The notes under the pieces were generated by a model. The model was not told the origin of the DNA. It searched no databases and saw only the letters and a list, made by a program, of their open reading frames with translations. A DNA stretch of 64,000 nt. It comes from Escherichia coli. Lineage in GTDB: Bacteria; Pseudomonadota; Gammaproteobacteria; Enterobacterales; Enterobacteriaceae. Numbering within the stretch: the stretch's first letter is position 1; each line of letters begins with the position of its first letter. The DNA lies in assembly GCF_002854065.1 (NCBI RefSeq), contig NZ_CP024147.1; one strand, written 5' to 3'. The position numbers and the translations under genes were made by a program. This document shows, in pieces, positions 7,373 to 46,066 of the stretch.

Positions 7373-7459
7373 AAATCCCGACCCTGAGGGGGTCGGGATG
7401 AAACTTGCTTAAGCAAGAAGCACTTAAAAAATTCGTTACACCAGGAAATCTGATGTGTT
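7373..7459 (-). ncRNA. dsrA: DsrA small regulatory RNA (Hfq-dependent; activates rpoS translation, represses hns)
   Basis: Reverse complement reads AACACATCAGATTTCCTGGTGTAACGAATTTTTTAAGTGCTTCTTGCTTAAGCAAGTTTCATCCCGACCCCCTCAGGGTCGGGATTT, matching DsrA as I recall it, including the terminal GC hairpin plus U-tract. Confidence 0.9.
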
Positions 7460-15650: not shown

Positions 15651-15860
15651 GACTCAATCATTTTTTGAACAAATAGATAAATTTTGCGCAACGGCAGTGA
15701 ATACAGGAAAAATCGTTTTGAGCGATTTTATTTATCTTTGATATCGGCTTTATTAATTCATTCAATCAATATATTAGCACTGATTACAATTATACCTTTT
15801 TATTATTCTGTGTCATGATGCCTCCGTTATTAGCCTTTTATCGTCTTGTTTATATTTTTT

Positions 15861-15890
15861 GGGCCGGCATGATGCCGGCTTTTTTTTATG
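15861..15890 (+). terminator. Orphan intrinsic-terminator-like hairpin (GGGCCGGCATGATGCCGGC plus T8)
   Basis: Perfect GC-rich stem followed by TTTTTTTT on the plus strand; no plus-strand gene is annotated upstream. Confidence 0.4.
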
Positions 15891-26577: not shown

Positions 26578-26653
26578 TCCTCTGTAGTTCAGTCGGTAGA
26601 ACGGCGGACTGTTAATCCGTATGTCACTGGTTCGAGTCCAGTCAGAGGAGCCA
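26578..26653 (+). tRNA. asnT: tRNA-Asn
   Basis: 76-nt TCCTCTGTAGTTCAGTCGGTAGAACGGCGGACTGTTAATCCGTATGTCACTGGTTCGAGTCCAGTCAGAGGAGCCA; anticodon GTT. Confidence 0.95.
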
Positions 26654-26965: not shown

Positions 26966-34969
<8,004 letters not shown>

Positions 34970-34990
34970 TTTTTCGTTATAATTTCTTAA

Positions 34991-35020
34991 AGAGTGCTCC
35001 ATTCGGGGCACTCTTTTTTA
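34991..35020 (+). terminator. Rho-independent terminator downstream of yeeJ
   Basis: AGAGTGCTCC-ATTC-GGGGCACTCT hairpin followed by TTTTTT. Confidence 0.6.
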
Positions 35021-35230: not shown

Positions 35231-36283
35231 TCATATTCTCGCCAAAACACTTTTTAATGCCTTTGCGAATTCATCCAGACTTATATTGTCAATTTTTTGC
35301 CCAACGACGACTGACTCCGAAACATCGGCCATTGCGGGCCATCGCGTTTTGTAATCAGCATAAATTGCAACAACGGGGGTATTATAGGCACTTGCCATAT
35401 GTAATATTGAGGTGTCAGGAGTTATTGCGATATAAGCATCTTTTATGATTGCTGCTGAACGTTTAATCGAGGGTGATAAGGATAAACGGTAGACATTATT
35501 ATAACAATCCACTAATACCCTGGCTTTATCTTCCCCTTTTGGTCCATGAACGATCACTATTGGTATATCTGTTTCACTTTGAATTTTTTCTATTAGATTT
35601 TCTGCAATCGATAGTGAAAATGTACGATCCTGCGAGCTACCTTCTAAATTAAGCGCAATGTAAGATCCTAACGATCGCATTTCCTCGCGCACCTCATCGA
35701 GTACATCCTCACTTAGTGGCAATTCATATATTGGCCTGACTGCTGGAAAACCCGCCTCACGCATCATAAATGCCCATGTCATGGGTACGGGAGCCCGGAG
35801 ATTCTGATCCATCCGGGACGCGTTCTTACACACAGGGGAATAGCACTTCATGGTTAAACCAACAACCTGAAAATTCGTTTTTGCTTTCAACTGACTGATA
35901 AATAACATCGTTTTCAGGTTCTTTTTACGCATCGCCTCTATACAAAGATCCGGAGTACCGTATTGCTGTGTTATGTTCTTCGCTAAATCTTTTATTTCTT
36001 TTAATGTTGCGTGATCCTGCATAGTCATTGTGACTAATGTTAATTTAGTCTGTTCAAGTTTGAGCGCATTAAAGACTTCTAAATTAATTATCGACGTAAC
36101 AATTAGTAGATGCTTAATTTTATGCAATTCAAGCGCCCGAATAACAGGAAAGATGGCCATAGCATCGCCAATCTGATCGGGAATATGGATGACAACAAAG
36201 TCTGTTTTTTCAATATTGAAATTATAAGCTTTATAATCGTAGTAACTAAATGCAATACGTCTCAACAATGATACTAAAAACAT
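35231..36283 (-). CDS. yeeL: Glycosyltransferase family 9 (heptosyltransferase-like) protein YeeL, apparently intact
   Basis: 351 aa from MFLVSLLRR…; strong SD GGGAGGCGAGG 6 nt upstream of this ATG; GT9 fold features. Confidence 0.75.
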   Translation of the reverse strand: MFLVSLLRRIAFSYYDYKAYNFNIEKTDFVVIHIPDQIGDAMAIFPVIRALELHKIKHLLIVTSIINLEVFNALKLEQTKLTLVTMTMQDHATLKEIKDLAKNITQQYGTPDLCIEAMRKKNLKTMLFISQLKAKTNFQVVGLTMKCYSPVCKNASRMDQNLRAPVPMTWAFMMREAGFPAVRPIYELPLSEDVLDEVREEMRSLGSYIALNLEGSSQDRTFSLSIAENLIEKIQSETDIPIVIVHGPKGEDKARVLVDCYNNVYRLSLSPSIKRSAAIIKDAYIAITPDTSILHMASAYNTPVVAIYADYKTRWPAMADVSESVVVGQKIDNISLDEFAKALKSVLARI

Positions 36284-36597
36284 AACTAACCTCGCCTCCC
36301 TACTGGTTATAATGCAATGCAGTCTATCAGAATCATCAGGGTGCAATTTTGTGCATATGCGGACTTTTATGTTTCATATCTCGAACCTGTGGGTCCTCTG
36401 CTTAATCCTTAAACAACACCAGCAACTCCCGCGCTTTCATCTTCCAGCGAATTTTTCATGTTGCCGCTAATCAGCCATAAAATCATTTGCAGATGCGCTC
36501 TGTCGAGGTAGTCTCATAAGGTTCGTTTATAGATCGACGGCAATGTGAGTTACCTTTTCCATACTAATTATAAAAAGACAGTACAAACAGGATCATT

Positions 36598-37914
36598 ATG
36601 GACTCCACGCTCATCTCCACTCGTCCCGATGAAAGGACGGTTTCGTTAAGTCGCGCCCGACGAGCTGCGTTAGGCAGTTTCGCTGGTGCCGTCGTCGACT
36701 GGTATGATTTTTTACTCTATGGCATCACCGCCGCACTGGTGTTTAATCGCGAGTTTTTCCCGCAAGTAAGCCCGGCGATGGGAACGCTCGCCGCATTTGC
36801 TACCTTTGGCGTCGGATTCCTTTTCCGTCCGCTCGGCGGTGTCATTTTCGGTCACTTTGGCGACCGACTGGGACGTAAGCGCATGTTAATGCTGACCGTC
36901 TGGATGATGGGCATCGCGACAGCCTTGATTGGTATTCTTCCTTCATTCTCGACCATTGGGTGGTGGGCACCTATTTTGCTGGTGACGCTGCGTGCCATTC
37001 AGGGATTTGCCGTCGGCGGCGAATGGGGAGGCGCGGCGTTGCTTTCCGTTGAAAGTGCACCGAAAAATAAAAAAGCCTTTTACAGTAGCGGTGTACAAGT
37101 TGGCTACGGTGTAGGTTTACTGCTTTCAACCGGACTGGTTTCATTGATCAGTATGATGACGACTGACGAACAGTTTTTAAGCTGGGGCTGGCGTATTCCT
37201 TTCCTGTTTAGCATCGTACTGGTACTGGGAGCATTGTGGGTGCGCAATGGCATGGAGGAGTCTGCGGAATTTGAACAACAGCAACATAATCAAGCGGCCG
37301 CGAAAAAACGCATCCCGGTTATCGAAGCGCTGTTACGACATCCCGGTGCTTTCCTGAAGATTATTGCGCTACGACTGTGCGAGTTGCTGACAATGTACAT
37401 CGTTACCGCGTTTGCACTTAATTATTCAACTCAGAATATGGGGTTACCGCGCGAACTTTTCCTTAATATTGGTTTGCTGGTAGGTGGATTAAGCTGCCTG
37501 ACAATTCCCTGTTTTGCCTGGCTTGCCGATCGTTTTGGTCGCCGCAGGGTTTATATCACAGGTGCGTTAATCGGAACGTTGAGCGCATTTCCTTTCTTTA
37601 TGGCGCTTGAAGCACAATCTATTTTCTGGATAGTTTTCTTCTCCATAATGCTGGCAAACATTGCGCATGACATGGTGGTGTGTGTGCAACAACCGATGTT
37701 TACCGAAATGTTTGGTGCCAGTTATCGCTATAGTGGCGCTGGAGTCGGTTATCAGGTTGCCAGTGTGGTTGGTGGTGGATTTACACCTTTTATTGCCGCT
37801 GCACTCATCACTTACTTTGCCGGGAACTGGCATAGCGTCGCCATTTATTTGCTGGCTGGATGCCTGATTTCCGCAATAACCGCTTTGTTGATGAAAGACA
37901 ATCAACGCGCTTGA
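36598..37914 (+). CDS. shiA: Shikimate:H+ symporter ShiA (MFS)
   Basis: 438 aa 12-TM MFS transporter recognised as ShiA. Confidence 0.9.
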   Translation: MDSTLISTRPDERTVSLSRARRAALGSFAGAVVDWYDFLLYGITAALVFNREFFPQVSPAMGTLAAFATFGVGFLFRPLGGVIFGHFGDRLGRKRMLMLTVWMMGIATALIGILPSFSTIGWWAPILLVTLRAIQGFAVGGEWGGAALLSVESAPKNKKAFYSSGVQVGYGVGLLLSTGLVSLISMMTTDEQFLSWGWRIPFLFSIVLVLGALWVRNGMEESAEFEQQQHNQAAAKKRIPVIEALLRHPGAFLKIIALRLCELLTMYIVTAFALNYSTQNMGLPRELFLNIGLLVGGLSCLTIPCFAWLADRFGRRRVYITGALIGTLSAFPFFMALEAQSIFWIVFFSIMLANIAHDMVVCVQQPMFTEMFGASYRYSGAGVGYQVASVVGGGFTPFIAAALITYFAGNWHSVAIYLLAGCLISAITALLMKDNQRA

Positions 37915-41757: not shown

Positions 41758-41833
41758 TGGCTCCTCTGACTGGACTCGAACCAGTGACATACGGATTAAC
41801 AGTCCGCCGTTCTACCGACTGAACTACAGAGGA
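41758..41833 (-). tRNA. asnW: tRNA-Asn
   Basis: Reverse complement is identical to the 76-nt asnT sequence; TTGACA-17-TAATAT promoter on the minus strand at 41852-41880. Confidence 0.95.
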
Positions 41834-43581: not shown

Positions 43582-43657
43582 TCCTCTGTAGTTCAGTCGG
43601 TAGAACGGCGGACTGTTAATCCGTATGTCACTGGTTCGAGTCCAGTCAGAGGAGCCA
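43582..43657 (+). tRNA. asnU: tRNA-Asn
   Basis: 76-nt sequence identical to asnT. Confidence 0.95.
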
Positions 43658-45990: not shown

Positions 45991-46066
45991 TCCTCTGTAG
46001 TTCAGTCGGTAGAACGGCGGACTGTTAATCCGTATGTCACTGGTTCGAGTCCAGTCAGAGGAGCCA
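45991..46066 (+). tRNA. asnV: tRNA-Asn
   Basis: 76-nt sequence identical to asnT. Confidence 0.95.

Follow-up and report, generated by a model that had tools for sequence, protein, structure and literature searches.

An intact yeeL of Escherichia coli encodes a divergent GT9 glycosyltransferase that is often lost and is uncoupled from the adjoining adhesin gene yeeJ

The yeeL gene of the Escherichia coli genome analysed here is intact and encodes a genuine member of glycosyltransferase family 9 (GT9), an inverting GT-B enzyme that, to judge from its sequence, is probably active and forms part of a separate, divergent subfamily with signatures of its own. An intact copy is the ordinary wild-type state of the gene, already annotated by RefSeq, and K-12 is one of many lineages that carry a dead copy. 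The picture that emerges is of a functional but dispensable accessory gene, often lost in E. coli, whose position next to the adhesin gene yeeJ looks incidental. By a small measure, we favor the view that YeeL acts on the lipopolysaccharide (LPS) core, or at least on a lipid-linked glycan.

The stretch of DNA analysed, hereafter the window, comprises 64,000 nucleotides of contig NZ_CP024147.1 (assembly GCF_002854065.1). As had been proposed from the sequence, yeeL is convergent with yeeJ, and it is divergent from shiA (36598-37914). The relevant features are as follows.

26578..26650, plus strand: asnT, a tRNA-Asn gene immediately upstream of yeeJ (Rfam)
26966..34969, plus strand: yeeJ, intact, encoding an inverse autotransporter adhesin of 2667 aa that begins MATKKR (open reading frame and ortholog annotation)
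34989..35016, no strand assigned: hairpin AAAGAGTGCTCC-ATTC-GGGGCACTCTTT between the convergent yeeJ and yeeL (terminator scan)
35231..36283, minus strand: yeeL coding sequence for a divergent GT9 (GT-B fold) glycosyltransferase, intact, 350 codons plus TGA
35399..35416, minus strand: codons for YeeL D290-T291-S-I-L-H295, the GT9 donor-site motif D-T-(G/S)-x-x-H (alignments)
35579..35581, minus strand: yeeL codon 235, CAA (Gln) here and TAA in K-12 (direct comparison)
36164..36169, minus strand: codons for YeeL G39-D40, the family-invariant N-terminal G-D motif (alignments)
36284..36306, minus strand: yeeL ribosome-binding region, GGGAGGCGAGG, then TTAGTT, then ATG (read from the sequence)

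On re-translation yeeL is a single uninterrupted frame of 1053 nt, free of stops and frameshifts, which agrees with the intact gene described in an earlier sequence-only reading; the 351 aa given there include the stop codon, and the protein has 350 residues. The listing of open reading frames stretches the gene to 35231..36346 on the minus strand (371 aa) by way of an upstream TTG. Biological evidence supports the ATG at 36283, not the TTG at 36346, as the start; RefSeq annotates this ATG in every genome examined, and alignment places the same initiating methionine in all homologs from other genera. The start is preceded by GTAGGGAGGCGAGGTTAGTT (also given as GGGAGGCGAGGTTAGTT), in which the Shine-Dalgarno motif that had been pointed out is present as GAGG, 6 nt before the ATG, with a second motif, GGAGG, 11 nt away, further upstream.

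The gene is AT-rich, with a GC content of 38.8% and a GC3 of 35.6% compared to ∼50% in its neighbors. A promoter scan 5′ of yeeL returned no convincing or sigma-70-like site and fewer sites than shuffled sequence, and an Rfam scan gave no match inside or beside the gene. The hairpin between yeeJ and yeeL has a perfect 12-bp stem flanked by runs of A and T and lies 20 nt past the yeeJ stop codon. Its form suggests that it is likely a terminator for yeeJ and possibly, as a bidirectional intrinsic terminator, for both genes.

In K-12 MG1655 the gene carries a pseudogene annotation with the remark “internal stop”. The split K-12 pseudogene of the sequence-only reading is borne out, its cause being one nonsense codon. 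Between the K-12 gene and that of the window, Q235* (CAA to TAA) is the sole nonsense change, and there are 14 amino-acid differences and 0 frameshifts.

The yeeL locus was found in 5283 of 5426 complete E. coli genomes (97%). To sample this population, 30 records evenly spaced along the ranked list of 5,284 matches were each inspected, revealing 16 intact and 14 disrupted copies (47% dead). The K-12 allele Q235* is present in five of the 30 records, K-12 among them, K153* in one and a 10-bp deletion in another. Insertions of IS5-family elements break the gene in two records and IS1 insertions in three, a further record holds a partial copy, and in one an IS1-mediated deletion has taken yeeL together with most of yeeJ. 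These represent at least nine distinct, though not necessarily independent, lesions on differing allelic backgrounds. Because 47% of the sampled genomes have a dead copy, the function of yeeL must be dispensable. Where intact, the gene is under moderate purifying selection, with a dN/dS of ∼0.19 among 13 distinct intact alleles; the same calculation gives 0.04-0.12 for shiA. The best megablast match to the window, strain CUWW06 (100% identity), has an IS5 within yeeL.

The assignment of YeeL to GT9, made earlier from the sequence, holds: the protein matches Pfam PF01075 (Glyco_transf_9) with 29.9 bits against a cut-off of 22, over residues 207-321 only, and carries invariant catalytic motifs. 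A search of the PDB with the single sequence returned WaaF only (E 1.6), and a profile of the YeeL family reaches WaaC at E 9e-4. In the profile alignment “GPSWVGDMMM” of YeeL is set against “IPDQIGDAMA” of WaaF, with G39-D40 corresponding to WaaF G12-D13, and D40 thereby aligns with Asp13, the catalytic base of WaaF/WaaC. Likewise, D290-T291-S-I-L-H295 aligns with D261-T262-G-L-S-H266 of WaaC. Residues G39-D40, D290, T291 and H295 are invariant in 45 relatives (30 close and 15 distant). Since the motifs align with those of WaaF/WaaC and are invariant among relatives, we consider YeeL a real GT9 enzyme. The modelled structure is predicted to open with a helix (residues 2-13), followed by a Rossmann beta-alpha-beta unit from residue 29, and to adopt a GT-B fold, with two Rossmann-like domains, whose nearest solved structures are those of GT9 enzymes.

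It had also been allowed that YeeL might align to ordinary LPS heptosyltransferases. As an equivalog of LPS heptosyltransferase I, II or III (WaaC, WaaF or WaaQ) the protein was rejected, with scores far under the curated NCBIfam cut-offs (TIGR02193, 39.7 against 185.3; TIGR02195, 19.5 against 134.6; TIGR02201, 17.2 against 170.2). YeeL is only 12-15% identical to E. coli WaaC (HepI) and WaaF (HepII) and to an uncharacterised GT9 of Veillonella parvula (PDB 2gt1/2h1h/6dfe, 1psw, 3tov). Unlike WaaC and WaaF, it is extended at the N terminus by 27 residues with an invariant D16-Y17 and has a conserved loop with cysteines (141-162), and its gene is solitary and often inactivated, lying close to asnT between yeeJ and shiA and not in the waa (rfa) cluster for core biosynthesis. 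A GT9-like subunit of the chloroplast NDH complex, PnsB1 (NDF1; PDB 7wff, 9grx), is a eukaryotic structural protein with no known transferase role and shows that the fold by itself is no proof of activity; YeeL, for its part, retains the catalytic motifs.

The signatures of the subfamily are an N-terminal helix followed by an invariant D16-Y17, P111-D112-x-C114, N212-x-x-G215-S216-x-x-x-R220 and W315. The loop at residues 141-162, with C147 and C152, is conserved yet poorly modelled. Within it, the segment VGLTMKCYSPVCKNASRMDQ (residues 141-160, window 35804-35863; pLDDT <50) has C147, C152 and S156-R157-M158-D159-Q160 conserved in the close family, and may bind the acceptor, contact the membrane, or form a metal or disulfide site.

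Homologs of yeeL occur in only a few Enterobacterales (E. coli, E. albertii, Pseudocitrobacter, Erwinia, Rosenbergiella and some others) at 53-72% identity, those of the Erwiniaceae being 53-67% identical to YeeL across its full length. Every homolog outside E. coli is a solitary gene. In Pseudocitrobacter cyperus the order serU-mtfA-asnT-yeeL-shiA-amn is that of E. coli without yeeJ, and tRNA-Asn lies 50 bp from the yeeL stop (ARAGORN) with no yeeJ in between. The E. albertii homolog (67% identity; locus L007 10001-11059, CP117647.1) resides in the yciI-yciA interval, and a 72%-identical variant (P0044) bears an E. coli label in NCBI. Either yeeL has moved, or two divergent lineages exist within Escherichia. 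In one further genome the homolog lies between maeB and the eut operon. The Erwinia and Rosenbergiella homologs follow an upstream gene of the major facilitator superfamily (MFS) on the same strand, and a conserved MFS partner was considered and rejected. ShiA, the MFS protein encoded divergently from yeeL in E. coli, and the Erwinia and Rosenbergiella transporters are mutually unrelated (BLASTP E ∼1), so the association appears coincidental.

Outside E. coli, no locus has an autotransporter within 10 kb of the yeeL homolog, and yeeJ is absent beside the homologs in five other genomes (Pseudocitrobacter, E. albertii, Erwinia, Rosenbergiella and one more). The tRNA gene directly before yeeJ, asnT, is a recognised insertion hot spot (PMC5595812). 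Given this hot spot, and given that Pseudocitrobacter has asnT next to yeeL without yeeJ, the best explanation for yeeL and yeeJ being neighbors is that yeeJ has taken the slot at asnT. The presence of yeeL itself between asnT and shiA does not depend on yeeJ. The window has four identical tRNA-Asn genes (asnT, asnW, asnU and asnV), at 26578-26650, 41761-41833, 43582-43654 and 45991-46063, and its asnT is free of the yersiniabactin island.

The integrity of the two genes is likewise decoupled. All four genomes with an intact yeeL that were examined for it have a degraded yeeJ, and K-12 shows the reverse, its yeeJ being intact and its yeeL dead. In three sampled genomes the yersiniabactin island is inserted at asnT, and there yeeJ is a frameshifted remnant and yeeL is intact. 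Previous studies found yeeJ intact in 35-40% of strains (PMC5595812, PMC6714894), and the K-12 protein is exposed at the surface at its expected 246 kDa and promotes biofilm formation (PMC5595812). The yeeJ of the window is an intact long variant of 2667 aa, compared to the 2358-2359 aa implied by the 7,077-bp K-12-type gene. The additional length lies in the repeated Ig-like domains, and near-identical repeat blocks are seen in the translation.

The sequence-only reading had suggested that a heptosyltransferase-like enzyme beside a giant adhesin might glycosylate it. By analogy with Aah/AIDA-I and TibC/TibA, YeeL would then be a protein O-heptosyltransferase that modifies YeeJ or other adhesins in the cytoplasm before export. 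The bacterial autotransporter heptosyltransferases (BAHTs; TibC and Aah, PDB 4rap) have a distant GT-B catalytic core in common with YeeL, whose putative ADP-heptose chemistry would match theirs, and in E. coli yeeL also adjoins an adhesin gene. However, yeeL is convergent with yeeJ and has no conserved linkage to a substrate autotransporter.

TibC is distinguished by an N-terminal beta-barrel (residues 1-97), a beta-hairpin thumb, a dodecameric ring and an iron finger in which four conserved cysteines (C339, C342, C358 and C370) lie in a C-lobe insertion (PMC4358343). The YeeL model lacks the barrel and is predicted to have a helix and a standard Rossmann unit in its place, and no protruding hairpin insertion is apparent in its DSSP string. 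Cysteines occur in YeeL at 114, 147, 152 and 260 only; none lies beyond 260, and the iron-finger motif is missing. BAHTs are not the closest structural relatives of YeeL, and the YeeL-family profile did not recover TibC even at E≤10. A tblastn search of plasmids for Aah/TibC found only generic GT9 genes and mislabelled chromosomes, with no BAHT among them. Membership of YeeL in the BAHTs is rejected on the missing beta-barrel and four-Cys iron finger and on the failed profile match.

A dedicated adhesin-glycosylation module of yeeJ and yeeL is thus unsupported on structure, synteny and gene integrity, and with the TibC/Aah hallmarks lacking and the two genes decoupled we consider O-heptosylation of YeeJ or other adhesins very unlikely. 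It is also highly improbable that YeeL modifies proteins, either the Ig-like domains of YeeJ or unlinked targets, with a canonical monomeric LPS-type GT9 fold. If true, E. coli would have a second route to the heptosylation of adhesins or surface proteins, structurally unlike the first and so far invisible since K-12 lacks YeeL.

Evidence on the acceptor is indirect and comes in part from distant relatives, which were collected by an exhaustive HMM search over 1.84 billion representatives. The full-length relatives are 24-35% identical to YeeL and have its subfamily signatures in common, and all five informative gene contexts contain glycan-assembly genes. The relatives from Carnimonas bestiolae (P0108) and from a metagenomic contig syntenic with it (P0109) are surrounded by two Wzy_C genes of ligase or polymerase type, two GT2 genes, a GT4, a second GT9, Bac_transf, WecG and GLF. 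Two others (P0114 and P0116) each adjoin a GT8 gene that best matches LPS 3-alpha-galactosyltransferase. Another relative (P0135) is a 777-aa fusion of an N-terminal Wzy_C membrane domain of the O-antigen ligase/polymerase type to a YeeL-like GT9 (residues 434-775). It is encoded on metagenomic contig SRR5023860_205744 (locus L034 1955-4288) beside a GT4-polysaccharide deacetylase fusion. An nr entry labelled “glutathione transporter [Rattus norvegicus]” (P0075) shares 75% identity with YeeL over 88% of its length and is almost certainly bacterial contamination or a chimeric mis-annotation.

The N-terminal (acceptor) domain is basic in all 30 family members assessed (pI 8.7-10.2), and in most of them (26 of 30, pI 4.9-7.5) the C-domain is acidic or neutral, as expected for an enzyme that docks on anionic lipid A-core at the membrane. 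We propose that YeeL is an inverting GT-B glycosyltransferase of its distinct GT9 subfamily that would work in the cytoplasm. Its C-terminal Rossmann domain would bind a nucleotide sugar, most likely ADP-L-glycero-beta-D-manno-heptose as judged from motif conservation, using the invariant D290-T291-x-x-x-H295 motif together with the N212-x-x-G215-S216-x-x-x-R220 loop. In the N-terminal domain, the invariant Asp40 would serve as general base on the acceptor hydroxyl. The basic N-domain would dock onto a lipid-linked glycan that is anionic and membrane-bound, in all likelihood the LPS core, where the inner membrane faces the cytoplasm. YeeL would thereby add an accessory and probably non-stoichiometric decoration that K-12 cannot make.

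Single-gene core decorations of this kind have precedents. WaaH/YibD, which adds GlcUA to HepIII, and the plasmid-borne WabB of O157 are orphan transferases that modify the LPS core and whose genes lie apart from the main waa operons. These accessory, conditionally used activities are the model that we propose for YeeL by analogy, although they belong to other GT families and their products have been demonstrated, whereas YeeL is a GT9 whose product we infer.

Modification of the LPS core had been offered earlier as the second possible function, and it is the mechanism best supported by the glycan-gene contexts of relatives and by the basic N-domain; the low equivalog scores and the position outside waa count against it. 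Moreover, the glycan-cluster contexts belong to relatives only 24-35% identical to YeeL, and some of these clusters could make O-antigen, capsule or protein-glycosylation glycans instead of core. To our knowledge, a transferase has been assigned to each of the sugars known in the E. coli core, which leaves no “missing” activity for YeeL to supply. Enhanced motility is also an unusual outcome of LPS core defects, which counts against the LPS-core reading in light of the phenotype described below. A more specific version, in which YeeL gives the inner core a sugar not seen before that varies between strains, and in which selection through phage, motility or immunity drives its repeated loss, is more likely than the modification of proteins but still less likely than not.

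It is unlikely that YeeL acts on something other than the core, such as an undecaprenyl (Und)-linked intermediate of O-antigen, enterobacterial common antigen (ECA) or capsule, or that its donor is not ADP-heptose. The Bac_transf, WecG, GLF and paired Wzy_C genes of the Carnimonas-type clusters are typical of Und-PP-linked glycan assembly and also of general O-glycosylation, YeeL is not an equivalog of any LPS heptosyltransferase, and no counterpart has been assigned to its conserved loop 141-162 (C147, C152), which is modelled with low confidence. Against this, the top-ranked characterised GT9 enzymes with the fold and the D-T-G/S-x-x-H motif of YeeL are all ADP-heptose:LPS transferases, and the GT8 neighbors of distant relatives best match an LPS core galactosyltransferase. 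The presence of yeeL in E. coli of many O and K types also argues for a conserved acceptor, for example the inner core. That yeeL is a decaying relic without present function, of which the window holds a copy merely not yet hit, is quite improbable. Such decay would fit the 14 disrupted copies and at least nine distinct lesions among 30 genomes, the lack of a promoter-like site upstream, a dN/dS of 0.19 above the 0.04-0.12 of shiA, and a GC content of 38.8%, which suggests a foreign, possibly silenced gene. However, dN/dS among intact alleles is well below 1, the protein is conserved over its full length with invariant catalytic residues from Escherichia to the Erwiniaceae, and intact alleles persist where the adjoining yeeJ was long ago destroyed. 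In addition, a transposon-sequencing phenotype implies that yeeL is expressed.

This phenotype is the only one for yeeL that we found in the literature. In a TraDIS study of ST131 strain EC958, insertions in yeeL (EC958_2299) were enriched in the hypermotile pool (logFC 7.46), a result that was not individually validated (PMC5425062). The view that yeeL is functionally uncharacterised was also confirmed, as our literature search found no functional study of the gene; mentions are confined to K-12 pseudogene integration sites, an Rhs table and the TraDIS table. The family itself is known already, since RefSeq lists a “glycosyltransferase family 9 protein” in thousands of genomes, and it is the specificity of YeeL that is uncharacterised.

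Knowledge of E. coli LPS biosynthesis comes mostly from K-12, where yeeL is dead, and about half of E. coli genomes encode an intact enzyme of an uncharacterised GT9 subfamily that is invisible in K-12 biology. If YeeL adds a sugar to the core or another envelope glycan, the cell surface would differ between strains in this modification, with possible effects on phage susceptibility, motility (as the TraDIS result hints) and innate immune recognition. The repeated inactivation of yeeL would then be a case of recurrent gene loss, adaptive or neutral. Elsewhere in the window, Rfam identifies the sRNA genes dsrA (7373-7459, 102.5 bits) and rseX (15797-15886, 99 bits), which are ordinary E. coli chromosomal content.
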